A stretch of 64,000 nt of DNA from Psilocybe cubensis. Its lineage: Eukaryota. A program made the position numbers and the translations under genes. Numbering within the stretch: position 1 is the stretch's first letter; every line of letters begins with the position of its first letter. Under the pieces are notes generated by a model. It did not search any database. It saw nothing but the letters and a program-made list of their open reading frames with translations, and had not been told where the DNA came from. Location: assembly GCA_017499595.2 (NCBI GenBank), contig CM039007.1, positions 1,426,001 through 1,490,000 of the forward strand, given 5' to 3'. This document shows, one piece after another, positions 6,001 to 59,858 of this stretch.

Positions 6001-6456
6001 AAGGGTTATTTGATATAGGGCGCTTAGCGACGTACCGCCCCTTCTCCTTGTCGAGCTTGTCGCCCATGCACTTACTGAGCTTCTTGAACTCACGCTTTGA
6101 TCTTGCATTGTCGGTGTCGACCATGAGGTTCTGGAGATGCCATAGCCTCCAGCTCAAGTTCTCGAGTCTTTGGCCCTGTTCGAGGTAACTGGCGACCTTG
6201 GTACAGACCTGAGAGGAATGAGACGGCGAGAATAGAAGATCGGGGTTCAGAAGACAGACCTTCCATGTCTTGGTCAGAGATTCTGTGTCATTGAGGTTGC
6301 TGAACGCGACAAAAGACTTGTTTCCCTAAAGAGAGCAACGGGAGCAAAAAGAAAGGGAAAAAAAAAGGGAAAAAAAATGAGTGAACACGATCAAAGAAAA
6401 AGATCGGTTGCACAAAGGCGACCAACTTTGAACTTGAGATTGAGGATAGAGGGCAT
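3100..6456 (-). CDS. GATA transcription factor with N-terminal DUF1752-like (AreA N-terminal) domain and two C-X2-C-X17-C-X2-C zinc fingers; about 7 exons
   Basis: Exon 1 (6456-6427) reads MPSILNLKFK and splices to GNKSFVAFSNLNDTESLTKTWK..RLENLSWRLWHL. Fingers are CSNCGATHTPLWRRGLNDELNCNAC and [25 protein letters not shown], joined across GT-AG introns. Ser-rich C-terminus lies in ORF 3100..4323. Confidence 0.9.
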
Positions 6457-24896: not shown

Positions 24897-27387
24897 TTAC
24901 TGCGCTTGATGGAACGCAGATTCTTCCTGCATCTGGTCAAATTATATTAGTATCTCTGGCGGCATTTTGACAAGCGCATCCAAAGCTCACCCATGGTTCA
25001 TCTTTCGACGTGTACTTCGCGGGCGGCCTCTGGAAACAAGATATTGTGTCGGCCTCCTGGGCGTCTTTCAATAGAAATACTACGCCAAGTTCGTAGTTGG
25101 TGATCTGCATGCGTTGGCGTGAACGCTTGTAATGATCGACAAAATGGAGGATGAACGTACATTGAGAATGGGCGTAAACGCCGAGCCCGATAGCGTCCCC
25201 CATGCTGATGGTGTAAAATTATGAGAACCGACATATGCCCAACCTGCACCAGGATCGACGACTTCAATTTCATCATCCGTATCATCCTCTGTGTCTGACA
25301 GCACTTCCTGCACTTCCTGTGGTCCCGAGCCAGGTTTTTGTAACATGGCAATAATCATCTGATTATATATGTTATAAATTTCAGAATAATCAAGGGATAA
25401 AATCTACCTTCGAATGCATCAAAACAGGACCAGCTTTACTCTTGGAATCGTAGAGGTTGCTTCTTGGAAAATTCTTTGAACCGTATTGTTTCCGACGGCA
25501 GAATATAGTCCCTCCACCCTATGAATGTTTGATTGTGAGTTCTTAACTAGAAAATTAAACGGACCTTTTCCCCCAAGTGACTGGCTTGAACTGTTGATTT
25601 TGTGGGAAATACAATCTTGATTGATGGAAGTAGTAATCTCTCTCGAGATTTCTTAGATTTATCTAGCCAATCTTCGGCGCTTTCTCCCCTGGCCGACCAG
25701 TGGAATTCATTCAGCCATTGGGTAGTATAAGCGCCAATGCTTGATCCCTACCAAGGATATACAGATGTCAAGAAAAGCCAAACGTCCTATTCACCATACT
25801 GACCTGACATTCTATGGCCAAGTTTTTGGCAGACTTAGCTGTACCGGTGCGCATCCCCATTTTTCGCACTACGAACATGAGTCGAGGATGTCCATATCTA
25901 CCACGGATCATGATTTAACTTCAGCAGATGATAGAAAAGTAACGCACTGAATTACATGAGGCCATCCTTCATGCTTCCCAGCAATGGAAGCGACTAAATG
26001 AGCCTTGACACTTGACCAGTCCCATTTTTGGCGTAATTCGTCTATAGATTTCAGGGGAAGGTCTGGATGCTATAAGTTGTCAACGTAAGTCGCAGTACAG
26101 TTGAAGACGCAGAAGAATAAAGACATTATCTCTTATCATCGCCGCTAAGGCTGGCTTGACGTTGACAGCATGGAGGGTTTTTTGCAACGCCGAGGGAAAG
26201 TCATCTGTAACCTTCGGATCGTGCGGGATAGGTTTAGGACGGAGAGGAATGTCCTGAAGCCAGACGGACTGTTACCGAAATGGAGTTAGAATCATAGATT
26301 TTCGAAGCTGTTACAACGCACATTTTCCATGTCGCGCCAGTCATATGCAATCAAGTTTGCGGTAGATATGACAACACGCAGTCTGCCTGTTTTATAGAAC
26401 AACTGTACGGCGATGAGTAGAGCTTCAACTAACAGAGGGGAAAGGTATTACCAGCATAAACTATAAAATGTTTATCAGTAAAGATACCACAGATATATGC
26501 CAATAATAACCTTCATGTGCTGGCATCCAAATCCCCCACGTAAGTACGGAGTAGTTCGTATCCAATGAGGAAGAACATTCTTGATGGTGGCTTCCCCAGA
26601 TTCATCAGGCTGGGCGACCATGATGACGGGAACGGAAGGATCGAAGAATTGGTATATCCATGGAAAATCAAGAGCATACGAGGACATAATTGCAAAAGCC
26701 AGGTTGGATTTCTATTCGGCTAGATCAAGCAAGGTTCCTGGTTGAATATAAATTTGAGCGCACCTTTCCCAGAATCTCTGTCAATCGAAAAGTTGGCTTC
26801 CCATCCTTCCGCGGCTCAGCACCCATTGTGGCGGTTTGACGAAGTTCGCCTTTCCAGAACATTTGTTCGCTTGTAGACCCAGAGCTTGAATTTCTAGAGC
26901 TGTTTACACTAGAAACGTTAGATCGTACATTGGACTGACTAGGAGGGTAAACTTGGTGCCTCTTGGCGGGTGGCTCTTCGCCCTCCGAGTCATCCTCGGG
27001 AACCGGTATATCTTCCATCAGGGGTCTGAGGCGCTTCTGCCGTTCGCGTCGTTCACGTTCAAGCTGGGCTCTCTCAGATAGAAAAGTGGACACTGGAGAG
27101 CAATCTGGTTGAACATCGGGGCGAGAACTGGGGCCAGGGATCCGATGCAAGTGGGACTTTGTTGATTCCATGTGCTCTTGAGACATCTTTAATGCCTGCT
27201 TGAGCTCCTCTTGGAACCGTGCCTCTTCAGTATCCTCGTCTTCATCACTGTCGAGGTTAATGAGAGCAGGTTTTTTATTATTCTCTTGCAAGCTTAAAGC
27301 TATCGCCCTAGATAGTTTATCAATATATGTGCAACAGAGCATTAATATATCTCAAGACCTGGCGATATCTTCATCTTCGCTGGACAT
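24897..27387 (-). CDS. TDP1: Tyrosyl-DNA phosphodiesterase 1 (PLD superfamily)
   Basis: GCQHMK..LRVVISTANL first HK motif, LMHSK|MIIA second motif, WAYVGSHNFTPSAWG and NYELGV. UIM-like RAIALSLQE at the N-terminus. Multi-exon; ATG at 27387, stop at 24897-24899. Confidence 0.9.
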
Positions 27388-27659
27388 ATTGTTATGAGTG
27401 GTTGTGGATGGTTCAGAGCAGTTGGCCGACCTGTGACAGACTCCAATCAACGCCACTCGTGCGCGACTTTTCATAATGAGGCACATGATGTGACACGTCG
27501 TACCCGTGGGAATTTAATGCCCAAAAGGAGCGATAAAAATGATGCCGCGATGATTGAACGTTGGCCCCTTGAGTTCAAAACTTCTACTCACCACTTCCAG
27601 CTTTCGGTCTAACCCTCACAAAAGAACAAACTCCATAAAAAGCGTCGTAGAAGATCTCA

Positions 27660-28600
27660 ATGGGTTATGAAGCTCCTACTGTAGGCCAATATCATTAACG
27701 TCCTTTAGTAAACTTCTCTTAGGACTTAGCTCTCAGGAGTATCAACTTGCGAAGCCTTATCTAAATGCCATTGAAATTGCTTTCCTCAAGACGTCAAGGT
27801 GGCTTTTTATTGCGTGCCTTCACAACTGTATATCTTCTGGGAATAGATTGTTAACACCGTTAGATATACATCCTTGGATGTCCTCCCGTTTGAAGGACAC
27901 TGGTTATTTCATGAGATCTCTGAAATATCATCTTGATACAGACGAGTTCGGGGATGACTATGAGGAAACATCGAACGTCGAGTCACTCTGCAGGTCGGCT
28001 CCGCTTGACTTGACTACGAACATCAGGAGAACAATGTTCTCACATTTGTTTTCCACTGTTGGGCAGCTTGGTGAACACTGGTCCCAATGGCCGCAACATC
28101 GTGAATGACTCAGAACACCAGTGTGTTGTTTCAAAAATTGTTTATCGAGTTATTCATATCTGATGCGAAAGACCAAAAGTGTTGCATACGTAACCTTTGG
28201 TGGCTGAAGATCTTGCTCACTCTTCCGGGAGTCACAAAGGTGCTAGCAGACACTAACGATAATGCGCAGATGTCAATCACTGCGCGCATGTGTCCTAGAC
28301 ATCACAGGCGATGCAAGTGGCATATTATTGACTTTTACAGTGCAGGAAGCCTCTAGACGGAAGATGGTATCAGCTACAAGAAAAAATAGCATCAGCGAGT
28401 ACTCATGGCTTCTCTGGAAATACTGGCGGGATCTAGTGGTGGTGGGGAAGGTAAGGTAGACGGCAACAATGTTGAAGGAGATAACATATCAGAGTTCTAT
28501 GCTGGAATTTTCTGCTCATTATCATGGAAACGATCTGGTAGCTGAGTACTGTTTCGTATCGATGGTTTGTTGGCCGGAGAGTCCGACCTGTAGGTTCAGA
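27660..28600 (+). CDS. Possible multi-exon hypothetical gene, divergent from TDP1
   Basis: Short ORF segments (27848..28108, 28262..28459) bounded by plausible splice sites. No recognisable motif; boundaries approximate. Confidence 0.3.
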
Positions 28601-29107
28601 GTCCTATATGAAAATATTTCATTGTTTTAATGCAACGGCTGAGTATGACCTTTACCGATGCTAAAAACTGTAAACTCGGTAAATTTTGATAAAAGAAAAC
28701 TGTCTGCGCTTTGCGGAGCAGAGGACGCGTTGCTTCAGACATGATCGAGCGATCTGTGACAAAGGAAGGTATGCGATCTGAAAATTCCATTTGGGGATGG
28801 TAAAAGGTCGCCTAACAAGTACATCCTACGTTCTACAACGGTCGAAATATTGTTTAAAGAACCAATTGGCAAGCACTAATGGTTCCTGAAAGATAAAGAT
28901 ATTTGAAGGAAGGACACCCTTGATGAAAAAATGGGGGAAGTACAGAAAGTATGGATGCTATGGCACACTCAATTAAAACAAGATGGTCGAGGGCGATGCC
29001 TCGACATCAGAACTACCAGTAGCGTCATACAACTCGAGGGATATCGAAAAATGTAGAAAATAAGATGGGGAAAGACGCGCATAGCTGACTTATCTGACAC
29101 CTCCGAA

Positions 29108-30726
29108 TCAGATAGTCTCCTCCATGGTGAAGCTCGTAACCTGGGGGAGGTATGCACCAGCGGCAAGATCGAGGATGTGAACATCATCGAACGCAGTAGC
29201 ACCATTGAATCCCCCAAAAACGAATAGACGACTGTCCGCCAAGATGGTTGCATGGTACCCGCGGATTGACGGTGGTTTCCCAAGGACCACACGGTCTTCG
29301 TATTGCAGTGATACTGTAGCAAGGGGGAAGGCGACAACGTCAGAGATACAGAAATGTATGATGTAATTTGTGAGCATACCTAGATTGTACATCAAAAGGT
29401 CTGATACATAGTCTGTTGCCCCATGCCCGCCAACAATAAAGATATAAGAGCCCACTTGCGTAGCAGAATGGGCAAGTCGTTTATGAAATGATGTTTGTTG
29501 CTTGACGGCACTCCACACAAGCGTATCTGATGAACGTGAACAATTACAATTTGAGTAATGCAGAAGACTAACGAGGTTACGTACCCAAATTTAGACACCA
29601 AACCTCAGTGAATGATTCCTTGCCGTCACTGCCGCCAATAATCACCATGATGTTGCCGACCAAGTTTGCTGTATGATATCCCCTTGGACCAGGCCTCTTG
29701 CTGTTGGTGTGAATCTCTTCCCATCGCATAGGTTTAGCTTGAGTACCCGCTCCGCCAGATATGTCCAATGTCCATAGATCATTTAGAGCAGTCAGTCCTG
29801 TACCTCCTCCAAAAACCCATATTTTGCCCTTGTAATACACTGCGGAATGCGCCCTGCGAGCAGGCGGGCGACGCCCAGGAGCAATGTGTGGCCGGGTCCA
29901 CCTGCGGGTAGCGGTATCAAGAACGTAAACTGCATCATAATATGTCGATCCAAGACCTCCCCCGTAGATAATTAGCTTTTTATCACATAGCGTCGCGGTA
30001 TGGGCACGACAAGGTGGTGGAATGTCCCCGACAGTTTCAGGATGTGACCACTGCATTGTTTCTGAAAGAATAAATCTCAGGATTCGAAACATTACAGGTG
30101 CTGGATGCGAACTAGGAAATGTGAAGAGGGGTAGAAAAGAGATGTTCGGACTCACCTGTGTCAAAACAGTAAATCGCTTTTTCTTTCAGAACATCTTTGT
30201 CGTCGCAACCTCCAACTAACCATGCCGTTGTATCTACCAATGTAGCTGTGTGAGCTCGCAATGTCCTTGAGGGGGCTGCGCCCCAGGCCGGCGCGCGACT
30301 CCAGTACATGACGGTGCTAGGGGCAGGTTCAGCATCCTTATCGTGAGGAACCTTTGGCGTGATGCGATTTTTTGGTTCGGGAATAAGACTACGGGCGTGG
30401 GCAGCAGCGGAACCACGCGTCCTGCTGCTTCCACTGCCACTCGGAGTTGGAACAACTGTGGAGGATGAAGACGTTCTCTTGACAGTTGAAGAGCTAGATC
30501 CTGACGACGATGTCAGATGCTCGCTTGAGGTCCTTCCCAGGGTACGAACGCTAGCCGTCTTCCTGGAGGCCTTCCCAGTGCTGCTGCTGTTAACTGTGGT
30601 TGTAGAACTAGTAGGCGAAGTCATTGAGTATGGCGATGCCGTTTTAGGATCTTCTTCGGGAACTTCAGGAACATTTGGGAGACACCGAGTCGAAGAACTC
30701 GTGGTAGGAGTAGGAGTCGCGTCCAT
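29108..30726 (-). CDS. Kelch-repeat beta-propeller protein with Ser-rich N-terminus
   Basis: Repeated Kelch units such as RAHTATL..IYGG, RAHSAVYYKGKIWVFGG, RGYHTANLVGNIMVIIGG and RGYHATILADSRLFVFGG. 4 exons; ATG (MDATPTP) at 30726. Confidence 0.9.
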
Positions 30727-30977
30727 TTGTGTTTCAGGGGAAGATATAGACGCTGAAGCTGGGAACGAGAAAGTGCTCAACGCCGCATCAAAGCGCACTG
30801 GCAGATTATCCTATTTATTCCCGTGGGAACAATTTGTATCCTTCTCAAACATCCAATAGTACAACAAAGCTTGAATTCAAACCACCACCGTCGTACTCCG
30901 TGATACATGACCCACACAAAAAGCGTTTTCAATCTACACTTTCTACGAAAGAACATATGCCCAATCATAAGAGCTTT

Positions 30978-33799
30978 TTAAACAAGCATCTTGTAATCAG
31001 CATTGGCAAAAATCAGAGATTGATCCAGAATGTCCAAACTTCCGAACTTGCTGGCCACGTCGTCTCCATACAGAGCTTCTATCCATCTTGTGTACAATCC
31101 CCTGAAGTCCTTTTGTGTCGACCTGACCATGGAACTCCGACGTCCACGATCGGTCCCGACCTGCACAAGAGCCACTTCACGGATTGACGGTGTATTGAAC
31201 ATCTCGCTGTACAATCTACCCCAGGTTACCAAACCACACTCCCGAAGGGCGACATATTCGTGGAACGAAATGAAATTACCTTGACCCACCTTTTTTGGTC
31301 CCAATGAAAGTACTTGCTCCCATTCCACCCTCAAATGTTGGTAGTCGTTGAGATCGCTAAAGCATTGTCTTCTCAGCTTGGTATCTATCGGCAGATTCTC
31401 AATTGCAACTCCAGCAGTACTGCTGTCCAAGGAAGACTTGAACCCTGGTGGAGGAAGGAAATGGGTGGAATCAGAAGGCGCATAAGGTGTCTGTAATGCA
31501 GAGCATAGCAAAGTTGGATTGAACAACTGGAGGCCACCGGCAGCGACTGGAAAGTAGAAGTACCCTTCTGGGAAATCGTGGGCTCCAAATTGCTTGATTA
31601 TCCTATTTCGAAGGTACCCAGTTGGCCCAATATTGGGCTCTTCAAAGAGTCCATTTTGCACCTTCTTGTACGCCTTTATCAGATCTCCGACAAGTGCGCT
31701 TCCCAGCCCATTCACAGGAACACCTCCAAAGTGTCTGGAAAGGTGAGCCATGTATCTGTTATAGATTTGCACCCATCCTATGACTGATTTGGTGGCGTCC
31801 AGTTGTCGACGAAATTCAGTAATCTGCAGGTCGACCTCGGTTTGGTTGACCACGAAGTTTAAAGTTCCGGAATCGAACTTGAGAAGGCCCCATTTGACCT
31901 CTCCCTTGGGTAGTAGAGCTTCCTCGGCTGTTGGAGGTCCCGAATACACTGCTCCAGACTTTTTGTCGTCAAATTTCACTCCTATGATTGCCGCATATTC
32001 GCACATCGCCTTCCACGCTTTGACACATTTCTTGACATCCGAGTCCCAGAACCACATTTCATCGTGGATTCTGTATAAACGCAACCCCTTCGTTCGACGA
32101 TTGACAGCGACGTCCATAATGAACATGATCGTCTCGGTGAAGAACGTGCTGGAAGCGTAACCTGATGGTATTCCTCTTTTGCACACACGCGGGACGGTTT
32201 CTCCTGGCAAAATAACTGGTACGGCAAGAGATGTTTGAAAGAATGTGACCCATTTTTGGGGCACTCCAAGATATGCAAGAACGATCAGAATAGATTCGTG
32301 GGGTAAGCAAGATGCCAAATTCGTTATAACTGAATGGACCATAGCATGACAACCGTGAATCAGGCTGTTTAAACGACTTTCCGCTGCCATTAGATGAAGC
32401 GCCTGACGTCTGGCTGCCACCGCGCTCTGTTTTTCTCGCTGCCACATATCGGATTCAGGCATGTTGATGAAATCGCTGTGGCGGTCGAGACGGTGATGCC
32501 CAATGTCGTTCAAATCAGAAAGGAGGAAGACTTGTCTGAACGTTTGCTCACGAATGTCGTCGATGGATTGGCCGTTCGCTTGTTTCGAGAGCATGCTGAC
32601 CTTGCTTTTTGCGTGCTCCTGCGTGATGGAATATGCTTTCCTTTTCCAACCACTACTGTAGAAGAACTGTGTGCAAGCCATCTTCAATTGCACCTTCCAT
32701 TTTTTGCCAATAAATTGCAAAACGATGGCGTCGATTAATTCAGGTTCAATGGATACACTGAAAAACATCAAGTCAGTTTAAAATCAGCAATGATGTATTC
32801 AAAAACTCACCAAAATTCATCGCTTCTCTGACTTCGGATAGCCACCTTGACGCCTTCTTTTGGCCAAGACCAAGTATCGATGTTAAGCACCCTCATAGTC
32901 GCAATACTGATGACCTGATCGCGCGCTGTCGGATTCCCTTGGATATGTTCAATGACCTCCCGCTGTTGCCCGTCCACCAGCCCGGAAGTCAGCAAGTCCT
33001 CAAGAATATCGTGTATACTATCGCCTATATGCTCCGCGTCAAATTGGACTCCAAAGCGATAGTTGGATGCTCGCACCTCTGCTAGCGCCTGTGTGACCTC
33101 CTCTGGCTCGAACAAGTTATCCAAGTAGTCGAATAAGTTGCTGAAGCTAGTGGTGTGTTCCTCAAATGCTGTGGATACAAATTTTTCATGTGCGATCCTT
33201 GCTTTGCGCTCAGCGTCGTCGGAATCTTGGTTCATATTCTCAGAGCTTTTGCTATGCTCGCCAGGCGCATCCGACAACATGTCGAAATCTTCATCTTCTT
33301 CAACCCCGCCTGAACCTGGAAGTCTACCTCCATAATAAGGTACCTCGGAATCTCCACTAGACAGGTACTCCAGATACATCTCTCCAGCTAACTTCGCCAT
33401 CTGTAGTCGGTTGCTTATATGCTGAACATGTCCCTCGAGCGTTTCTTCCCATCCACGGATAATCTTCATGTCAAAACCCACCTCCTCTCTCGCCTGCTTT
33501 ATCCCGAACTCCAGGTTGCTGAGCTCCAGTCTCCCACCAACCGTCGTTCCATGGAGTTTACCGGCCCCATTCCATTGTTTTACAGCCTCGATGAGGTGTT
33601 CGATTCTTTTCAGTAGGTCCTCTTTATCGGCTACTACAGACACGGGTGCTCCATTGGTTTTGACCATGTTCTCTTTCTTGGCGAAGATACTCGCTATTGC
33701 ATTGCCATATGCGACACGTTGTTTCTCTATCTCTTCCAGCTTTGCGATGGCGATAGATTGCAGGGTGTCATTGAATGTGGGTGTAGGAAATGACGACAT
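30978..33799 (-). CDS. rvt: rvt-family cellular reverse-transcriptase-related protein, intact ORF with degenerate catalytic motifs (922 aa)
   Basis: Two exons (33799-32811 and 32757-30978) with a 53-nt GT-AG intron. N-terminal helical region TLQSIAIAKLEEIEKQR; RT core LPHES..LGVP..W, KRGIPSG, LYRIHDEMWFW, KKSG, LPKGEVKWGLL, FPEGYFYFPVAAGGL. No LTR, gag, endonuclease or TSD. Confidence 0.85.
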
Positions 33800-34054
33800 T
33801 GTTACCTTTCGGCGTGTTGTGGGCGCTTACTGAAGATGGCTTTGTAAGATGAGTTCCTTGAATTGGTATTCTCGAATTTTTTGGTAATAAATGCCGAGGT
33901 CGACCGATGAAGTATTTATGTCAATTGCAAGTGGTCCGTGCTGCTTTGCCTGGGAAGCCACATATGTACATCAATGGTGTAGACAAGGTGTAGAGTCACC
34001 CTACAGTCCATCGGGTCCGGTGTGTCCTAATCTGAAATATGACATAGTATGGCA

Positions 34055-34507
34055 TAAGGCTCCAACCGTTTCATTTGTTTATCGTTTGTAAACCGTATAT
34101 ACCATTTACCGTTTCGTTTAGTTTACGAGCCTTGTTAAACAGTTTACAAACGTTTATAAACGGTTCAAACGGTAACAGATTTTTGTGCTAAAGTATATCT
34201 CTTTTTTGGACAATATTAGGTGCGTATTACATCAAATGATTCATCTTTTATTCTTTACACCAAACTAACTCATTTGCACTCTTGTTTTGGTCCCATTTTT
34301 GTACCAATTAGGTGCCGACTATTATATTCCTTGGCAAATGGGCCGCATTAGGACAAGTGATGCGTTGAACGCTGTTGAACGCCTGCCCTTGTAGCCACCC
34401 TCGAGCTTACTGTTTACAAACGTTTATAAACGTTTGTAAACTGTTTATTACCGTTTCCGTTTAGTTTGTAAAAAAATTTAAACGGAAACTAAACGGTTGG
34501 AGCCTTA
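34055..34507. mobile_element. 453-bp non-autonomous hAT-like MITE, copy 1
   Basis: 17-bp perfect TIR TAAGGCTCCAACCGTTT. 8-bp TSD GTATGGCA at 34047-34054 and 34508-34515. Subterminal GTTTACAAAC/GTTTATAAAC repeats; no ORF. Confidence 0.95.
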
Positions 34508-35292
34508 GTATGGCATCAAAATGACATGCACAGTAATTTTCGAGGTAAACACACTGAATAATTTGATTGCGCTGTTTTATTCACCGCCAGTCTTAGGACT
34601 GTTTAGGTCTTTAGACTCTTGCAGGTTATGCGTGTTGTGTTGCATTTAAGTTTGACTTGATTCCCATGGGACTTTCCTTATCAGATTAGATACGGTCAAT
34701 TCGCTGCTGACGTAATTTCCATACATAGTCATCAGTCGGTCGCGTGGACGTCAATCATCGCCTGATCTGACTCAGGACGAAAATATCTTCGAGAATGTGA
34801 ATGGCACTCCATGCTATGCACCCTTCTGCAGATAGATTGAACTCTTCGCTAAGGTGTAGTACTTTCCTGGTAGTAATCAAACGGCATTCTATCCAAGAAT
34901 CTTACTTGAGAATGTTTCAGAGACGCCTCTTTCCCGGAAGGCTGCGCACTACAAAAGTCACCTCCAAGTTTTAAGAAAAATGGTGGTTTTAGTAACCATA
35001 CGGCCTACTATTTACAGAACACATAGTTGGGCTCTGGTCGCTGTGTCCGCAGTCCTGAATATACCAGGTGGTGACACATTGCCGATAGCCAGTCCAATCA
35101 CCTGTCCCGGAAAATGTATCTGGGCGCTGGCAGTGGCTTTGACAATGGCAAGTAGGGTAATACACAGCCCCACAACCGTGCAGACCGCAATTCCTTTTCA
35201 TTAAAAGAACGTTACTATCAGAACCTTCAGAGCACCCAGCGCTCAGGCAACGCCCATACTCTTCAGCTTGAAACTGTCTTTCAACTATTAAC

Positions 35293-35873
35293 ATGATCAT
35301 TGTCGGTTCATCGCAAGCCCCTAAAGGGCCGGCACCTTTGGACTACGAGTTAGCATCGAGGCTAACAGCGATGAGCAACCAGCAAAATTTAGAGGGAAGA
35401 CACGTCGAACATTACGCAGCCGCACCTCCATATTATCCAGGGCCTCCTGTTGGAGGGGAGCATCCGATGGTCATCGTAAACGAGGCATCAATAGGTGCTC
35501 AATATCAAGCCGAACGTATGTGATTATTCTCTCCCGTGGCTAGTGTTACTCGAGCACCTGATATTACAACGTCCTGCCCGCTTTTAGTTTTTGCGCGTTG
35601 TGCCAGAGGAGATCATCAGACCACAAGACGGTTCAGACCGCTAGGCATTATCACAGCTATAGTGCGAAATTCCCTCCAAGTTACAAACTTCTATTTCTTT
35701 TCTGAAAGAGCCATTCTTCTGGCTAGATTCTGTTCCCCGTGGGATTGCTTTGTTTATAGTAAGTTGGTTAAGGTCACAAAAACCTTGCGCCTCCGTCTTG
35801 ATTTTTTTGTACTCTCATAGCGCAGACTCCGAGAAGAAATGCGCCCGTTGTGGTGAAATCCTCTTATCATGAT
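35293..35873 (+). CDS. Small Pro-rich BRI3 (brain protein I3)-like membrane protein
   Basis: PPYY-containing N-terminus, then spliced exons giving FARCARGDH..PLGIITAI..FPVGLLCL..EKKCARCGE. Confidence 0.65.
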
Positions 35874-36613
35874 GCCGAACGGGTCTAAGCAGATATTCCA
35901 ATCGCAGTTGAACCCAAAAACATTTCTCTCAATTATACCCCGCCTCATCATACCCCTGTACTCGTCAGCTAATGCGATGAAGGAATCAAGGCCATCACCG
36001 TTTCTTTGGTTCCAAAATAGCAGAAAATATCATATTTATTCAAGGATCCTATACCACTGGATTTTTTATAAAACTGTAATCAAATTTCAGACACACGGTG
36101 TCTGGCGGCGGCGGTTGAGATGCGTAAAACCGCTGTATTGGTCCATAGAAATGACCGCTATCTCCAAAATTGGTCATATCTAATATTTGCCTCTCTTTCT
36201 AGTATCTTCTGTTGAACAGCCTTTTCTGAATCCACACATTTTGAGGTGATTTGTCCCATGTTCTAAGATTAGTTTCAGTCGCCAACTCATGCTCATGTAC
36301 TGCAGAATCGGCTCATTTATAGGTATGTCGCTTGCACATCTCTGGCTTCTACGGCACAAGATCTGAATTTTTTTTCTCCTCTGAATCCAGCAAGTCGTAT
36401 CTACCGTTCGCTTGGTCGCTTCTTTTCACCTTCTTTGCCATATGGCATACCGCTGTTCATGTCTGAGTCAAACACTCATGACACGTCAATATGCACCTTC
36501 AGGAGCATCATTTATTGTGCTTTATTGAAACGCACGTTTGTTAGCTTCCATTTTGAATGCTTAAAAGCAGAAAAACGCCTCTAAGGAAAATCTGTCCACG
36601 AACGCCAAGCAAA

Positions 36614-37790
36614 ATGCGCCTCACTCCATCTCTATTAGCATTATCTCTAATTTCCACATGTGCTGCTCAGAAAAAGGTTGTATTAACCAACGATGATGGT
36701 TGGGCGACAGCCCAGATCCGAGCAGAATATGCTGCACTTCAAGCCGCTGGCTTCAACGTAGGGCACATCTGGTGATCGATACGTACGCCCGTGTATCTTA
36801 CAGAGTTAAATAGGTCATTCTATCTGCCCCTGCAATCAACAAGTCTGGGACCGGTTCGTCTACTACTACCCCAACAACGCTAACTACCGCCTGTGAATTT
36901 AATACTTGCCCTTCTGGTTCTCCTGCGACGGGAGCAAATTCAACCGATCGTAAGTTGCCTACATTTAATTCTATTGCAGCCTGTAGTATCGATACTTACT
37001 TTGTGATATTAGCTCGAATTAACTATGTTAACGCATTTCCGTATGTGGACTCTGTTTATTTCTTTTCCTGTCACTTAGAAGCGAATTTCTTTCAACAGAG
37101 TGGATGCTGTTCGCTTTGGAATCCAGACTCTTGCTCCAAAATTCTTTGGATCAAAGCCTGACTTTGTTATCAGTGGGTCCAACATCGGAAGTAAGTTTAC
37201 TTCGCGAAGACTAGAAAGTGATTAGGGATTAAATTTAGTGAATATTAGCCAACCTGGGAAGCATCGGTGGCTCTGGCACAGTGTATGCCCTTTTTTCAAT
37301 GTTCGAACATGTCTAACCAATTGCATTTAGAGGCGCTGCATCTGAGGCTGCGTTGGAGGGAATTCCCTCAATTGCATTCTCTGGAAGTTCAGGATCTCAA
37401 GTTTCGTATACCACACTGTCCGATACGACAACCACATCGACCATGGCCGCCAACATCTACACCAGCCTCATCCTCAAACTTACCAATCAATTGTTAAACA
37501 ACACCAGTCCCATTCTCCCAGCGGGAATCAGCCTCAATGTCAACTTTGCGTCCATTTCTAGTTGCCCATCTGCCTCTAGTTTCAAATTTGTCCTCACAAG
37601 ACTGGAGTCCAGTTCTGCCACAGACGTCACTACCTGCGGGACCAATAAATTAACACCAGAATCGACGGCTATTAAGGAAGGATGTATTGCGACAGTTAGC
37701 GTTTTCAACGCGTCGACGAAGGCCGATGTCAATTCTGCTACCCAAGGCGTCGTTTTGAACAAACTTCAACCAATACTCGGCTGCCTTTAA
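36614..37790 (+). CDS. Secreted SurE-like phosphatase/nucleotidase, copy 1
   Basis: Signal peptide MRLTPSLLALSLISTCAA, then VVLTNDDGW, SAPAINKSGTG, SGSNIG and EGIPSIAFSG. Several short exons. Confidence 0.88.
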
Positions 37791-38327
37791 CTGTAAAGGT
37801 TCATAGGATTTAATTTTGCAGAACCTGTGTAATACTCGTCGTAGTACTAGTTTGGTTGAATGATTTTCGTATCACTAGCTGTTTGAAAAATGTGCCTTCT
37901 GGATTTGTGCATAAATTTTTATCTCAAACTCCAATATAACCTGGTGAATTTCTTGTCTTCTGCATCATACAGCATCACATACGCACGTTCAGGTTCACGA
38001 TGAATAAAGGATATATTTTTAGAATTAGGAGATGGTTTTAAAATCAGAAGGGTCGATTCATGTGGAAATCACAAGTATTTCAATGAACGTTGCAAAACAT
38101 CCACACTAAAATGACACGCATGACACCAACAGCCCTCCTCCATGATTATCGTTGGAACATGGGAAATACACGAAGTGCAATCTCATGTGGGCATAACAAA
38201 CACCAAAATCGGGAGTGCACGTTCATGATATTCATACGCGTCTTTAAATAGACAGGGTCTCAATGGGGAGAAAATAACTCGCCCTCAAATCCAGAGAGAC
38301 AGAGAGACATTCAAACCCATATTCACT

Positions 38328-39646: not shown

Positions 39647-41260
39647 CTACTCATTTCCATCGTCTTCTTCCGCTCTTTCCAACGGTTCTACTGACTTGCC
39701 GTCTTTTTGGAGCCGCGAAATTCGCCAGCGTTCGTTTATTGCCTCAACAGTGTCCAACCTCTTTCGTTTTAGCAATGGAACATACTTCAGGCTCCTTTTG
39801 AATGTCCCTCCTCCCAAAGGAATGTTGATATATCTTTCCCTTTCAGGTAAATCCTTCATGTTGTTCAGCCCTTCTAGTCCATTTTTTAGTGGAAGAAGTG
39901 TCGGGGGTACAGGATGATGCTTCTCTGCGGCCCTAATGAAATGGTCATCGAGAGCAGAGAAAACGCGAGAACGGTTATATATTGCTTGAAGTTGGCGATA
40001 CAGACCACCGTTGATAGCATCGTTCTCAGTCAAATTTGAGGTCTGCCAGTCTAGCGCAGATTCGTCGTAGCCGCACTCCCATAGCATTAAGGGCAAGGCA
40101 TCAGCCATTTGATATTCCGGTTTTCGATCAATTGCTTCATATTTCGTGACAGCATCGGTGTCCTCTGGTCGTAGATCTTCGACGCCTTCTTGAGCATTCA
40201 TGAGCTCTGTGACAATTCTCGGAGGCTCAAGGCCTGATCCGACAAGGAAAAGAATGGCCATGATGTGTCGCACTTGATGGTACAAGAATGCTGTTCCGAC
40301 GAGGTCGAAGACATACATATTTCCGTGGGCGTTTTCCTCGCTCTCCAATGGTTCAATGGTGGCACGTAATATTGTTCTTCGAAAGTTTGTTATTTGTTTC
40401 TGGGCATCTAATTTGCACAGATTACGAAAGTCATGTTCACCCATCATTCTCGCAGCGGCTGCCTGCATAGCGGGTATATCGAGGTGTAGGGAAGAGAAGA
40501 AGTACTTGTAGTGCCGGTACTTGCAAGAAAATCGGGCGGAGAAAGATGGATCGACTGGAGACCAGGCAGTAACCCGAATGGTGTCTGGTAGAAGGCGATT
40601 TATCATGGAAAGGTAATCGTGCTCGCGCACCTGGGAGACTTTCTGCACTGAGGTATTTGATGAAGGCTCCGATGAGAAATCCAGATCCCCAAAAAGACCG
40701 TCGGCGTCAGATTCTGGGAGGGATTCTACATCTTCCACTTTTGCCACTTTCTCTACATTAGAGACCTCCTCTTGGGCACCCTGTGAAGGCAATGCGCTTC
40801 TAACCCAAAGCGACACGACCTGACCTCCTGCACTGACTCCACGATCTGTGCGTCCACACTTTTCCCATCCACATCCCTCGAACCCAGCCTCAGGATCAAT
40901 CAAACGCGTCTTTGCTAATGCATCGAAAAGCACATTTTCGACGGTTGGAAGAGGTGTTGGACCCATTTGGAAGGCAAGACCACCGTACTCCCATCCTGAG
41001 TAGCAAAATTTGAGGGCAATTTTTCGCCTTGAATACTTTGAAAAATCGAACGTTTTGCTGATCTTGGGTGGAGGTGGTTCTTGTTTGGTTTTCACATCGG
41101 CAGCGGCACCCTCGAGTTCAGTTAACCTCTCGATCAATCGTTCGCGAGTCCAACCTGCATAAGGACCTGGATTGGGACTTGAAGTAGCAGTTGCTGGCAT
41201 CGAATAACCAAGTCTTGATATAAGTGAGCGTGAACAAAGATAACGACGCCCAAGGTTCAT
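39647..41260 (-). CDS. PUS3: tRNA pseudouridine synthase, TruA family (Pus3/Deg1-like); start may be the ATG at 41200
   Basis: RKIALKFCYSGWEYGG, CGRTDRGVS catalytic Asp motif, FSARFSCKYRHYKY, GEHDFRNLCK and AFLYHQVR. Intronless 537-aa ORF. Confidence 0.92.
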   Translation of the reverse strand: MNLGRRYLCSRSLISRLGYSMPATATSSPNPGPYAGWTRERLIERLTELEGAAADVKTKQEPPPPKISKTFDFSKYSRRKIALKFCYSGWEYGGLAFQMGPTPLPTVENVLFDALAKTRLIDPEAGFEGCGWEKCGRTDRGVSAGGQVVSLWVRSALPSQGAQEEVSNVEKVAKVEDVESLPESDADGLFGDLDFSSEPSSNTSVQKVSQVREHDYLSMINRLLPDTIRVTAWSPVDPSFSARFSCKYRHYKYFFSSLHLDIPAMQAAAARMMGEHDFRNLCKLDAQKQITNFRRTILRATIEPLESEENAHGNMYVFDLVGTAFLYHQVRHIMAILFLVGSGLEPPRIVTELMNAQEGVEDLRPEDTDAVTKYEAIDRKPEYQMADALPLMLWECGYDESALDWQTSNLTENDAINGGLYRQLQAIYNRSRVFSALDDHFIRAAEKHHPVPPTLLPLKNGLEGLNNMKDLPERERYINIPLGGGTFKRSLKYVPLLKRKRLDTVEAINERWRISRLQKDGKSVEPLERAEEDDGNE

Positions 41261-41833
41261 ATATCACCTTGTAAATAATGGCTCGACCTGTTCAAAGATA
41301 GAGTCAAGTTGATCAATATCGAAGAAAAATCCCAGTTCAAATTTGCATGGTTTTCACTCACCCCTAAGATTTATGGTCCCAGGAAATAGTGGTTAGAAGT
41401 ATAAAGAATCAATGGAGAAGCCTTTCAATGGTTGAACTGAAAAAAGACCCCGGCATCTCGGCAAGTCAGAGGAATGAATAGGGGTGTTCAATACCAGTAA
41501 ACGTAAAAATACAGCTTTATTAGTAATAGTAGAATGTACACTCTTTTATCAACTGGTTAAATAGATCTCAGCATCACCCAATATGCCATGGTATAAAGAT
41601 AAATTCAAAAACTATCTATCTACCAACCAATAGATTTGGATTCCATGCCTAACTTGCTCGGGAAGCTCATATTAATGGCATATTAATCAACTGCGAATGG
41701 AGAGTTAGTAGGTGGCGTATGCACCGTGTATAGTGCAGCTGCAATGGATTCGTCCTGTAAGTGCAGGGTTGTCAATGCCATAATGGGGTTCCAAGGACCA
41801 GTGTAGGCAGTGATGCTTGCGAGGTAGATCCTG

Positions 41834-43682: not shown

Positions 43683-46239
43683 TCACTGGTCCAACCTTAT
43701 ACGGGACGTCTTAAAGAGCTGTCCAATCCCAACAGGTATATAAGTGGGTATAAGGTTCGGATCCACAGCATCGAATCCTCCATAATTATTCACCACTTCG
43801 TCACCATAAATGCTAAACACCCACTGTGCGTACCAATTCCCGTTCTCCAGCCAATTTTGTGGCGTCGTCGCCTGCTTCATCATCTCCCAAACCTTAGGCA
43901 TCAACTGCACCCGCCGTGGTTTGGGAACATCGAGCATGTTACCGTACGAATCGCCCCAGCCGGCAAACTAGGACTCGCGGAGCCATGTATATTCCTTGAA
44001 GGTCATGAATTCTTCAGGTTCAGGTTCAGGTTGGTTGTATCTATTCTCGTGTGCGAAGGGGTCACTTTCCCATTGCTCTTTGAGCTTCGCGTACACTTTG
44101 GGATCGTTGGCCACGCGTTGGCTGAATTTATCCTCTGCCATAACTTTATACTTGACAAAGTTGTCGTCGGAATCGAATCAGTGGCCTCGGGTTGACCATT
44201 CCCGTCCTCGTCCTCGTCCTCGTCGTCATTGTCGTTTGCATCTTCTTCGTACTATTAGAACCGTCAGAGAGAGTCGACTTATTGGATTATTGGAAGCAAC
44301 ATGATCTCCGCTCCCTTTCCTTTTCCAGCGGAGAGGTCTTCCATGCCTCTCAAGAGCAAGGATCTCTATGATGTGATGGAGGTCTCGCCCGCCAGTGCTT
44401 ATAGGAAATTAAAAGTAGCCCTCTGGAAGGTCCTGGATTCCAAAGCGCTCGTATATCATTTTTCTGAGGTAACCCACAGCACTTCCTCTGCCGTTAGAGA
44501 ATAGCTTCCGTTGAATTCGAGTAAAAACAACGATTGTGCCCATAACGTGTGCGTTGCCAAAACAGTTCGCCGGAACACCGCCCAGGTTTGTGAAGATAAA
44601 CCGCATGTACTTGCTGTACGCGTTGGCCTATCCAAAGACAAGGCTTGGTACTAGCCAACTGGCGGCACATCTTAGCGATGTGGTTCGAAATCTCATGCCG
44701 GTCAACGACGAAGAGCTTTTCGCTGGGTTCGAATTGTAGGAACCACCAACGGATATCACACTCAGGAAGACCAATGGCATCTCCCGACTCGAAAACCGAT
44801 ATAAACCGGCCCTGTCTTCTTTTTGTTGAACTTGTGCACTGCCAGGGCCGCGTACTCGTTCATAGTTGCCCATCCAGCTGCGACTTTGCTAACATTGGAA
44901 TCCCACAAACAGAGATCGTCATGCATCCTGCAGAGGTACAAGCCATCCGCGCGTTGGTTGACGGTAGAATCCATGATGAACGACGGCTTCTCCACAGAGA
45001 ACACTGAGCGTGTAGCCGATCGGAGTACCACGCTTTCGTGTACGTGGATTCAGGTCTTCAGGGAATCGTACAGGAACCAAGAAGAACGATTTGATGAAAG
45101 ACAACCAGGCTTTCGACATGCCCAAGTAGTCAAGAAATGTGAGGTCAGTCGTGTGCAGAAGCGATGATCCAAATCCGAGCAAACGGTTGCGTGCGTTCCG
45201 TAGGCTGTAGTATTGAGGTAGCATTCGGTAGTCATGATGTTGAGATTTTTGTTTGACCATAAACGGATCATTATCGTATCCATAATTTCGGGGTTGGTGA
45301 AGGCCCTGTAAATGACGATGAGGGGACTTTTCAATCGTCTAGCGTTTGAGCAATCCTTACCTGTATTTCCATTCAAATGTCCATGGAACTCGACCGGAAT
45401 ACACCCCTTATTCCACCCTCAAGTCTCGAGACCACCAATGGCATATTGAGGACGCTGGTGACTTCTTGGAGAATCACACTGTTTTCTTGGAATGTTCTTG
45501 AAGTCGTTCATTTTTGCTTCGTCCGTAATACCACTAGCCAAAAGGCTGTAGATAGCGCATACAACATCAGAGACTGCAAGACGGGTGCACTGTTGACTTT
45601 CAATAGCATTTTTCATATCCCTATGAAGGTGTTCCAGAGCCTTTGCCGCTTCGTCTGAAAAAAATCGTCCCCAAGATAGGTCTCCTTCTGTTCATGCATT
45701 TCCTTCCTCCCATTTGCCGCATAGACGGAGCTATCAGACGCCCGTCCTTGGACTATGTCCATCATATTGGCATCAGCCACGTTTTCTCGCGGAGCCTGGT
45801 AAGACACAGCAACGGAGTCGCCACTGGTTATCCATTCATGGAAGAGCTTCCAAAATAATCGGGCCGCATCAAATCGAATCATGTTGCGCCGAATGTGCTC
45901 CAATGTCCTGGCCCTGCTTTCTGCGAGTTCGATACTGGTAACTGAAGCTTGGATCGTACTTGGCTTGGGCGAGCAAGAATTCCAGATCATCGAGGTGAAC
46001 CTGGAAGTCGACTATGCTATTCCGCGGCGTTCCGGAACCAGTCCATGTTTTCAAGGCTTTCGCGAGGACTTGAACCTTCTCGAAAATATTTCCTTTTGCT
46101 TCAAAATTTTGGCTCTGGCGAGAACCTTTGCGTGGTCCTGGTATGCTTGTCGTTGTTTCTCAAGTTCAAGGAGTTTGATGTCGGTAATAAACTGAAGAGT
46201 TTGTCCAAAAGAGGACCTCGAAGACGCGCTAACAGACAT
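43683..46239 (-). pseudogene. rvt: rvt-family pseudogene (second paralogue), multiply frameshifted
   Basis: Collinear fragments in different frames: FGQTLQFITDIKLLELEKQR (46051..46239), LFHEWITSGDS, ATVCSDL, RKRGTPIGYTLS, LYLCRMHDDLCLWDS, FGIQDLPEGYF followed by a stop, and C-terminal WVFSIYGDEVVNNYGGFDAVDPNLIP (43683..43937). Confidence 0.88.
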
Positions 46240-55598: not shown

Positions 55599-58500
55599 TT
55601 AGTCGGCCAAAACTCCCAACTGCAAAATGAAACCGTCGTGTGCAACTCGAGGTAAGGCCTTCGTAAATATATCCGCCAAATTGTTTGAAGTGTTGATGTA
55701 AACAGTGTCGAGCGTCTTCTTCTCCACCAAGTCGCGTAGGAAATGAAATGCAATGTCAATGTGCTTCGTACGGGCATGGAATTCTGGATGATGCGCAATT
55801 GAAATGGCTGCCGTATTGTCGGTAAAGATGGTTGACGTCGACGGAATGTGGAAACCGAGCTCCGTGAAGAGTGAGCGGTGCCATAAGACTTGCTTCGCCG
55901 CATGTGTTGTGGAAACGTATTCGGCTTCAGCGGTTGAAAGTGCGACCGTATTCTGTTTCTTCGAGCTCCATGCCACAGCGCCGCCTGCTATCGTAACCAC
56001 GTATCCGCTAGTCGATTTCCGATCGTAGTTTTCAGCCCAATCGGTGTCGCAATAAACATTGAGATTTACGTCCAAAACTTGCGAGTCGCCGCCGTAAGTG
56101 AGTTTGTGATTGCGCGTGCCCTTCAGATAGCGAAATATACGTTTGACAGCGGTCCAATGAGTCGATTTCGGCTTGCTGGTGAATTGCGCGAGTTTGTATA
56201 CCGCAAACGCGATGTCTGGACGAGTTCCGAGTGCCAGATACATGAGTGAGCCAATGACCGTTGCATAACTGAATCCTAAACGCAAATTAACCTCCCCCTG
56301 ACCGTCTCCATCCTCCCGAACACCTTCATCCTTATCCAATCGCACGTTCGGGTCCATAGGCGTCGAAACGGGGTTCGCGTCTTGTAAACCAAACTTCTCA
56401 AGGAGTTTGTCGATGTAGTGTGCTTGCGAGAGCGAAATGTAATGGTCCTTTTGCTCGAGCTTGAACCCTAGCATCATCGAGGGCTGACCCATCGATTTAA
56501 CGTCGAATTTCGAGCCTAATTCTCGCTCCAGCTGGTCGTTGAGCGAGTCGTTCGTTGAGAAACTGATTATGTCGTCCACCCAGGTAACCAAAATCGTAAA
56601 ATCGCCGTTTTCAGCTCGACGGATGTAGCAGCAGTAATCGCTCTTGAGTTTCGTAAAACCGAATGAAGTGAGAGCGTTATTGAGTTCATGGTTCCATACG
56701 TTTCCTGCCTGCTTGAGACCGTAAAGCGAACGAATGAGACGGCATGCCTGACCAGTGCCATCATCATAACCGGGTGGTTGGACCATATAAATCTCCTCCG
56801 AGATGTAACCGTGCAAATATGCACCCTTTATATCGAATTGACGCATCTTGAGATTGTGTACGGCCGAATATGCGAGTAGCGAGCGTAGTGTGTCGAATCG
56901 CATGACTGGTGCGAATGTTCCGTCCTCGCTGTAGTCTGTACCAGGTCTCTGAGAGCATCCCTGAACGACTAGTCGGGCCTTGTACTTGATGACGTTCCCG
57001 TTTTCGTCCCGTTTCTTCGCGTAGACCCAACGGCATCCAACCAGTTTCCTTCCATCCGGAATCTTCATCATCTCCCAAGTACCCATCCGTAAAAGCGTCT
57101 CGATTTCTTCGTCCATAGCTGCCTTCCACGCAGCTGCCTCACAGCTTTCCAAAGCTTCTTCAAGTGTCCGAGGTACGTCCGATTCACGCATGGCAAATAC
57201 ACGTTCCGAATCGTCTAAAATCGCGCCCCACAGCTGTTCTTTGACGACGTTTGCTTGCTCCGTTGCTGTAGACTTTGCGCTCGAGGTCTCGGTCGATTTT
57301 GTAGCGATTTGTGGTGCGTTTGGAGTCGTTTGGGATCGTGTAGTCGGTAAACGAGCATTCGGGTTGTTTGCCTTCTTGTAATCGATGAAATTGTGTTCAC
57401 GAGCTGATCGACGTATGCTGGGCTGTGGAATCGGTGCTGTAGACGAAATAGGTTCGTTCTTGACGGTTTCTGGCTCGTTTTCGCTGGATTTAACGTCTGT
57501 CGATTCGTTACGCTCCCCCTCAGACGATAATCCAGGAATTTCGACGTTCTGCGGCGTTTCGTTTTCGTTAAACGATACGTTTCGCGATGACTTCACTGTG
57601 CGCGATTTGGGATCGTAATAACGCACAGACTTCGAGCCTTCGTTAAAACCAACGAATACCATCTTCTTCGACCGTGGCTTGAGCTTCGAAAGCCCCTTCG
57701 TCTCGTCTAACACCCATACATCGCATCCGAACTCCCGAAGGTGAGAAACATCCGGTTTCTTGTTGTGCCAGCCTTCATATGGTGTCTTGTCGTCGAGTGC
57801 TCGAGTAGGCGCGCGGTTGCGTAAATAATTCGCGTAATTGACCGCTTCGTCCCAGAGAAAGAGAGGTAAATTCTTTGCAATAATCATCGCACGTGCTAGC
57901 TCCAACAGCGTACGATTGTAGCGCTCTGCGACGCCGTTCTGAGATGGGGAATATGGCGCCGTCGTCTCGATTTCAATGCCTCTCTCCGCCGCCCACTTCT
58001 TAATCCGCTCGTTCACGAGTTCCTTGCCATTGTCCATGCGAATGTACCTCGGATACTGCCCAAACCTCCTCTTCACTCGCTCCCCATGATTCTCAATCGC
58101 CTTTGCCGCCTCCTTCTTGTCCTTCAAGAAAACCACGCCATTGTATCGCTTCGCGTCGTCCATAAACGTAATGTAGTAATAAAATCCATTTACCGAGCGT
58201 GTTCCGATAGGACCCCATACGTCGCTCATGGTTCGCTCTCCAGGAACCGTGGATCGATTTTCTGCTTCTCCAGGGAAAGGTTTATGCGTCTGCTTCGCTT
58301 GGATGCACGCCTCGCACGATGGGGATGGAATAGACGTTTCGTCCACGGAAAGACCAACGACGAGATCGTTCCGGACGAGTTTCTGCAACGACGACACTGA
58401 GATATGGCCAAAACGACGATGCCATTGATCCCAGGTGAGTTTTGGCGAGACGTAGTTGACCTGTTCCCCTGAATTAAGCTGAGCGCGAGCGTGAAGAATA

Positions 58501-59768: not shown

Positions 59769-59858
59769 TTGACGTCGAGTGCGAGTGCAAGTTTAGATAT
59801 AGATCGATAAGAATAGAACGAGTTTAAAAACAAAGCGAGCTTTAGTTATGACCTCTCG

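Follow-up and report, generated by a model that had tools for sequence, protein, structure and literature searches.

Can a gene of the reverse transcriptase (RT) superfamily remain an intact gene after its active site has been replaced? This question is raised by a 64,000-nucleotide stretch of the Psilocybe cubensis genome (GenBank assembly GCA_017499595.2, contig CM039007.1, positions 1,426,001 to 1,490,000 of the forward strand), here called the window, in which the RVT-family gene JR316_0010728 occupies positions 30978 to 33799 on the minus strand; all coordinates below are positions in the window. A preliminary description of this DNA, made from the letters alone, had noticed an uninterrupted RVT-type frame with altered motifs A and C and had proposed that it is kept for a non-catalytic role. 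The observation is confirmed here, and the interpretation is partly supported. We read JR316_0010728 as a duplicated RVT gene that has turned into a non-catalytic 'pseudo-polymerase', and put the probability of this reading at roughly 0.6.

The frame is intact as described. Its coding sequence starts with an ATG at 33799 and ends with a stop codon at 30980..30978 (minus strand). Two long minus-strand open-reading frames (ORFs) underlie the gene (32807..33826 and 30978..32777), and the reading frame closes only after removal of a single spliceosomal intron of 53 nt (32758..32810, minus strand), with GTGAGT as donor, CTGAC as branch-like site and CAG as acceptor; the intron splits codon 330 within the fingers motif 1/2 region. 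The spliced coding sequence of 2769 nt gives 922 amino acids plus a stop, with no internal stop or frameshift, and the product (P0003) is the same, from first residue to last, as the NCBI entry 'hypothetical protein JR316_0010728 [Psilocybe cubensis]', which comes from a 3.08-Mb contig. Exon 1 (32811..33799, minus strand) carries codons 1-329 and two nucleotides of codon 330; its product comprises an all-helical N-terminal domain (residues 1-315), including a disordered acidic loop (about residues 156-191), and the first fingers strand. Exon 2 (30978..32757, minus strand, stop included) encodes residues 331-922, namely the insertion between motifs 2 and A, the palm, the thumb and the C-terminal domain.

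In this product, replacements affect those residues that would be expected to bind the nucleotide and the metals. Motif A (residues 467-483; 32298..32348, minus strand) reads HAMVHSVITNLASCLPH, with Val473 (32330..32328) in the column of the family Asp; canonical members have xSDxxWFGPSLPH at this place, and P0003 has HSVITNLASCLPH. The motif C hairpin (LYRIHDEMWFW; 32046..32078, minus strand; predicted at 558-560/563-568), for which the family consensus is LYRxHDDxWxW, keeps Asp562, and its second Asp has become Glu563. The set that marks a catalytic rvt protein, a motif-A Asp together with a motif-C DD, is thus represented by Val473 and Asp562-Glu563. The fingers hairpin of motif 1/2 (residues 317-333; 32748..32851, minus strand) reads VKVAIRSQRSDEFCVSI where the family reads RRqLNGKYR: five family-conserved residues are replaced (R323S, N326S, G327D, Y329F and R330C), and Glu stands in the consensus Lys column. 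Arg522, just before motif B, is Cys instead in all three orthologues. The motif B region itself (RVCKRGIPSGY...MDVAVNRR; 32094..32189, minus strand) keeps G525, P527, E538 and D545, and motif D keeps its Lys, with N593 changed to Asp and T597 to Ser. Altogether, 108 canonical sequences define 78 columns with a conservation of at least 85%, of which P0003 retains 52 (canonical proteins themselves retain a median of 0.94 and a minimum of 0.76). Its changes at conserved columns are concentrated in motifs 1/2, A, pre-B, C and D, and the orthologues P0004 and P0005 have many of them too. From these sequence comparisons we infer that JR316_0010728 cannot polymerise nucleotides.

By homology and modelled architecture, rather than by direct alignment to Neurospora crassa RVT, JR316_0010728 is a member of the fungal RVT family; a named RVT of N. 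crassa was sought among the protein clusters and none was found. A HMMER search of 1.84 billion representatives gave 693 homologues at E ≤ 1e-3, of which 243 reached E ≤ 1e-30. The named relatives come from Agaricales, other fungi, mosses and one liverwort, and mostly bear the label 'reverse transcriptase domain-containing protein'; canonical relatives are 33-42% identical to P0003. The Pfam RVT_1 profile (PF00078) found no match at E ≤ 1 in P0001, P0003 or P0160, the P. cyanescens orthologue. Of the canonical proteins, P0009 passes this profile (30.7 bits; gathering cut-off 29.6), and P0006 and P0014 match below the cut-off. Against solved RT structures, the family profile matched 9ioa_A (DRT9; E = 4.3e-07) and 6me0_C, the RT of a group II intron (E = 0.0028), in alignments that pair motif B with G-x-P-Q-G, the family HDD with ADD and motif D with K.

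The predicted structure agrees with this assignment. AlphaFold2 modelled the full-length protein with a mean predicted local distance difference test score (pLDDT) of 86.3 and a predicted template modelling score (pTM) of 0.87 (exon 2: 87.5 and 0.88). The full-length model consists of a helical N-terminal domain, a fingers hairpin, a pre-motif-A insertion and then palm, thumb and C-terminal domain. Its N-terminal domain has predicted helices at 9-48, 55-75, 111-148, 188-211 and elsewhere, the longest of 38-40 residues, and contains the segment KLxExEKQR, which is conserved in the family; about 133 mostly helical residues separate the fingers hairpin (317-333) from the motif A strand (467-474). 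Two papers (PMC9226505 and PMC5718144) describe such an architecture for rvt genes, including a large insertion that separates motif 2 from motif A. The best Foldseek matches of the core were R2, LINE-1 ORF2p, DRT9, a group II RT (GsI-IIC), Prp8 and TERT (E = 9e-09 to 1e-05), with a probability of 1.00 to these structures; the right-hand fingers-palm-thumb fold of an RT is predicted for the protein with high confidence.

The conclusion on the active site depends on the register of motif A. In the alignment with relatives, Val473 falls in the column of the SD Asp of the family, and HDE falls under HDD. Three canonical proteins, whose matches to RVT_1 have three different starts, all place their SD Asp at profile position 73-74, and the spacing from motif A to motif C is 89-92 residues in canonical proteins and 89 in P0003. 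In the AlphaFold2 model Val473 closes the strand 467-474, and helices follow. The D-(10 residues)-H pattern is, we presume, comparable to motif A of LINE and group II RTs. The PDB profile searches covered motifs B to D and did not reach motif A, and an hhalign comparison of the canonical RVT alignment with the Copia RT of the window gave a probability of 0.14, which does not fix the motif A register.

These results bear out most of what the preliminary description had stated about the protein. The strings that it quoted are present, RIHDEMWFW as residues 559-567 (32072..32046) and AMVHSVITNLASCLPHES; the register that it guessed for motifs A and C agrees with the alignment of relatives; and the structure prediction and the search for orthologues (below), both of which it had proposed as checks, gave an RT fold and the same substitutions in other lineages. 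It had in fact understated the loss of the active site, which extends to the GKYR fingers residues and Arg522.

The altered site is not peculiar to P. cubensis. The signatures HS[VI]...LPHES, CKRG and LYRIHDEMW are common to P0003, P0004, P0005 and the P. cyanescens protein CVT25_003656 (P0160), which belongs to the 90% cluster of P0005; P0004 is 67-69% identical to P0003. In trees, P0003, P0004 and P0005 are grouped with a support of 100 within the canonical Agaricomycete RVTs, and their sister is P0013, which has Glu in motif A and DN in motif C. A profile search, limited by its word index and also failing to recover P0013, found no further members of this dead-site clade. The replaced motifs are nearly invariant among the dead-site orthologues. 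Since P. cyanescens and a third lineage carry these substitutions as well, the dead-site state, which is fixed in at least three Psilocybe-type lineages, is of long standing, and its frame has been maintained throughout. Exon 2 was subjected to simulated unconstrained substitution, without insertions or deletions; the frame was still open in none of 2000 simulations at 69% identity, in none of 2000 at 58%, and in 169 of 5000 at 90%. Since none of the 2000 simulations stayed open, frames that are still open at 55-69% identity would not be expected if selection were absent. As for the proposed retention in a non-catalytic role, the simulations thus support an open frame under selection, and the function itself is only inferred.

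The preliminary description had also called such a gene an unusual subtype, which the wider family contradicts. Among 149 representatives covering the core, the motif-A column holds Asp in 106, and the other 43 have a gap (2), Glu (8) or some other residue (33); the tree of these representatives requires at least seven changes of motif-A state. Thirty of the 43 non-Asp representatives form one well-supported clade of Pezizomycotina (P0057, P0060, P0075 and 27 others), which includes proteins of Aspergillus ochraceoroseus, Pyricularia oryzae (MGG_01364), Daldinia, Xylaria, Microdochium and Bogoriella. An approximately unbiased (AU) test rejected the joining of the Pezizomycotina and Psilocybe clades (difference in log-likelihood 144, p = 1e-23; the group was chosen after the tree had been seen). 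Because this test separates the two clades, loss of the motif-A Asp is recurrent in the RVT family, and because dead-site RVTs are common, JR316_0010728 is less exceptional than first thought. In the literature searched, we met no description of rvt genes lacking an active site, although the primary rvt papers or their supplements may hold one; the recurrent dead-site pattern thus appears to be undescribed in that literature. Some cluster members of the Pezizomycotina clade are annotated as fused to, or lying beside, Zn(2)-C6 transcription-factor domains.

P. cubensis also has canonical RVTs. Two intact genes, JR316_0010909 (901 aa) and JR316_0010625 (877 aa), carry GKYR, SD and HDD; both are on the 3.08-Mb contig of JR316_0010728. 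The nearby paralogue to which the preliminary description compared JR316_0010728 does contain the strings RMHDDLCLW and ATVCSDL (in the minus-strand ORFs 44762..45049 and 45050..45418, respectively), but it is not a working gene. It is a pseudogene of canonical type (SD, HDD) at 43686..46209 (minus strand), 11 kb from the intact dead-site copy, which matches canonical RVTs over residues 10-901 in pieces lying in three frames, most of them with one to seven in-frame stops, some at conserved Trp or Tyr codons. With an X put in at each break, its read-through sequence clusters with the canonical clade of Agrocybe and Cyclocybe (98/92), on an end branch of 1.22 compared with 0.17-0.28 for its relatives. 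Counted from protein searches only, the rvt set of P. cubensis thus comprises at least three intact genes and one pseudogene. Related genera are also multi-copy (Galerina marginata has at least five among those listed), and because there are several copies per genome, rvt is a small multigene family in Psilocybe and related genera.

On the pseudo-polymerase reading, an RVT duplicate would have lost polymerase chemistry long ago and would have stayed as a folded, non-catalytic protein under weaker constraint, in a role that needs the fold and not the chemistry. The likeliest such roles would be the binding of a nucleic acid or nucleotide ligand, or the joining or modulation of multimers of the two canonical RVT paralogues. 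A complex prediction pairing the N-terminal domains of P0003 (residues 1-320) and canonical P0182 (residues 1-286) gave a score of 0.00, in a run made without control runs, and speaks neither for nor against such an interaction. A bolder extension is conceivable, though we hold it to be rather doubtful: the RVT family may repeatedly yield long-lived dead paralogues, one in a Psilocybe-type lineage and another, of independent origin and far larger, in Pezizomycotina, that act as non-catalytic partners or sensors beside active RVTs, with the Psilocybe copy evolving fast under diversifying instead of relaxed selection and controlled by antisense RNA. If this is true, RVT would be a polymerase/pseudo-polymerase system, comparable to kinase/pseudokinase pairs.

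The alternative that survives best is decay. The dead-site clade would have been functional for a long time, and the P. cubensis copy would have been relaxed recently, be silent in the sense direction and be bound for the pseudogene state like its neighbour; this deserves to be taken seriously, but we consider it unlikely. Several facts weigh against a retained protein or for this alternative, and two others qualify the evidence for the pseudo-polymerase reading. Among 22 listed single-nucleotide polymorphisms (SNPs) between strains in the coding sequence, 16 are non-synonymous and six synonymous, giving a ratio of non-synonymous to synonymous polymorphism (pN/pS) of about 0.75 (a 7-kb stretch holds 23 further SNPs beyond those listed), compared with one and six in the neighbouring kelch-repeat gene (Fisher p = 0.011). 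Protein identity between P. cubensis and P. cyanescens is 54.8%, that of the canonical paralogue pair P0182/P0177 being 80.8%. P0003 has the longest end branch of the trio (0.24-0.25 versus 0.10 and 0.15) and is 36% identical to canonical RVTs versus 40-44% for the P. cyanescens orthologue. Its C-terminal domain (residues 745-922; 30981..31514, minus strand) has lost the conserved tail of the family, LIPVGMVQLFRTSRxKLDQ, which is replaced by LIFANADYKMLV and leaves this end truncated. The orthologues were drawn from predicted proteins, a source from which broken copies would escape, and the register of motif A is placed by indirect evidence from alignment and model.

The RNA data point the same way. 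Runs X1 and X2, which belong to one study, are RNA, because their contigs remove three minus-strand introns of a neighbouring gene. All strand-informative joints inside JR316_0010728 in these two runs are antisense, no sense-intron joint was found among the listed contig pieces, and the contigs over exon 1 carry no strand information. The antisense transcript (30893..32486, plus strand) has GT..AG introns at 31310-31376, 31743-31802 and 32303-32363 and covers the gene's 3' two-thirds, with one end at 30893 or beyond it and the other at about 32486; in its joined form the longest open stop-to-stop frame is 180 codons. It probably starts in the gap beside the 5' end of the divergent kelch-repeat gene, near a promoter region that the two share; the coding sequence of the kelch-repeat gene lies within 28816-30780 (minus strand). 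Because antisense spliced RNA overlaps the locus in the sampled RNA, sense expression of JR316_0010728 is probably low or conditional. The preliminary description had named a ratio of non-synonymous to synonymous substitution (dN/dS) near 1, together with a lack of expression, as the signs of a young decaying copy; the pN/pS and the antisense-only RNA joints show part of this picture.

Two features of the surroundings also fit decay. A sister rvt locus, the pseudogene described above, is already degenerate, and this strain has a miniature inverted-repeat transposable element (MITE)-like insertion some 250 bp 5' of the ATG. The latter (about 453 bp; 34055..34507, no strand assigned) has 22-nt terminal inverted repeats and is flanked by duplicated GTATGGCA; in runs X3 and X4 the DNA contigs lack it at this place, which makes it an insertion polymorphism, and its sequence is covered there at several times single-copy depth. 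A further strain difference is a 31-nt stretch just 5' of the ATG (33826-33856), which is missing from contigs of runs X2 and X4.

However, decay does not easily account for 922 codons without a stop or frameshift, nor for the lack of any such change among the 22 listed SNPs. In the absence of selection, few frames are still open once about 20% of the amino acids have changed (8 of 5000 simulations at 80% identity), and the confidence of the AlphaFold2 model is high. Moreover, 12 of the 16 non-synonymous SNPs sit in the poorly conserved, N-terminal exon 1. Within a species, pN/pS is usually raised by mildly deleterious variants. In short, retention of JR316_0010728 as a non-catalytic protein remains our preferred reading, with a constraint that seems weaker than that on the canonical RVTs.

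It is improbable that the protein is still an enzyme, in which Asp562, Glu563 and another residue, or a one-metal mechanism, would support a modified nucleotidyl transfer or a related reaction. LYRIHDEMW is almost invariant in the clade, Glu is able to bind metal, two otherwise canonical representatives have DE or ED in motif C, and the Lys of motif D and the G-x-P of motif B are retained. However, every orthologue has Val or Ile at the motif-A position, no acidic residue is conserved close to it (Thr, Glu or Ala stands at +2), and the family-conserved fingers residues and Arg522 are also gone; because several independent active-site elements are lost, residual unconventional catalysis is unlikely. 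In addition, a 2023 meeting report (PMC10680173) links rvt to stress responses and describes this function as requiring intact catalytic residues.

That the gene belongs to a mobile retroelement, as its RT fold, the several genomic copies and the intact Copia element in the window might suggest, was rejected as highly improbable: P0003 lacks gag, integrase, endonuclease and RNase H domains, no direct repeats of at least 40 nt occur within 27000-38000, a spliceosomal intron is present, orthologues exist in related species and the flanking genes are ordinary cellular ones. JR316_0010728 is thus a non-mobile cellular gene, but not a single-copy one in P. cubensis.

Ordinary cellular genes elsewhere in the window encode a GATA zinc-finger protein (4200-6005, minus strand), a pseudouridine synthase (39650-41263, minus strand) and the N-terminal domain of a phage-type (mitochondrial) RNA polymerase (61189-62523, plus strand). 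The Copia-type gag-pol frame (55602-59792, minus strand) is uninterrupted over 1397 aa, with gag, integrase and RVT_2 domains, and may, judged from these features, represent a young or active long terminal repeat (LTR) retrotransposon.

Fold-keeping paralogues without an active site would reveal a part of RVT biology that is independent of polymerisation, and dead-site RVTs could serve as natural 'dead' controls and are candidate partners for the active enzymes. They also matter for annotation, since the RT-domain calls in fungal genomes mix active RVTs, dead-site RVTs missed by Pfam RVT_1, and pseudogenes. The rvt genes were reportedly treated by Gladyshev and Arkhipova in 2011 and by Yushenova and Arkhipova in 2018. 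Like the rvt/RVT genes (UG37 in the UG/Abi scheme), JR316_0010728 has an N-terminal helical or coiled-coil domain, an RT core with a large 2-A insertion and a C-terminal domain, and it is an intron-bearing cellular gene outside retroelements with relatives in fungi and mosses. It differs from them in having no motif-A Asp, second motif-C Asp, conserved fingers residues or C-terminal tail, and also in belonging to a multi-copy family, where rvt is single-copy, and in evolving faster than a canonical paralogue. The RT-like domain of Prp8 (Foldseek E of about 1e-05) is similar in that an RT fold is kept in a cellular protein without polymerase chemistry. However, there is no sequence relationship beyond the fold, and Prp8 is a universal and slowly evolving protein of the spliceosome, whereas JR316_0010728 is lineage-restricted and evolves fast. 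The Pezizomycotina clade (MGG_01364, and P175DRAFT_0503239 of A. ochraceoroseus) likewise has a non-Asp motif A, often HSV...LPHET, and has lost the K/R consensus of the fingers; its proteins differ in being of independent origin, in having mostly DD in motif C and in being about 1000 aa long. Of the protein-primed and defence RTs of bacteria, DRT9 and AbiK / Abi-P2 are both among the fold matches, and DRT9 is the best sequence match among solved structures, but these are catalytically active enzymes in another domain context.

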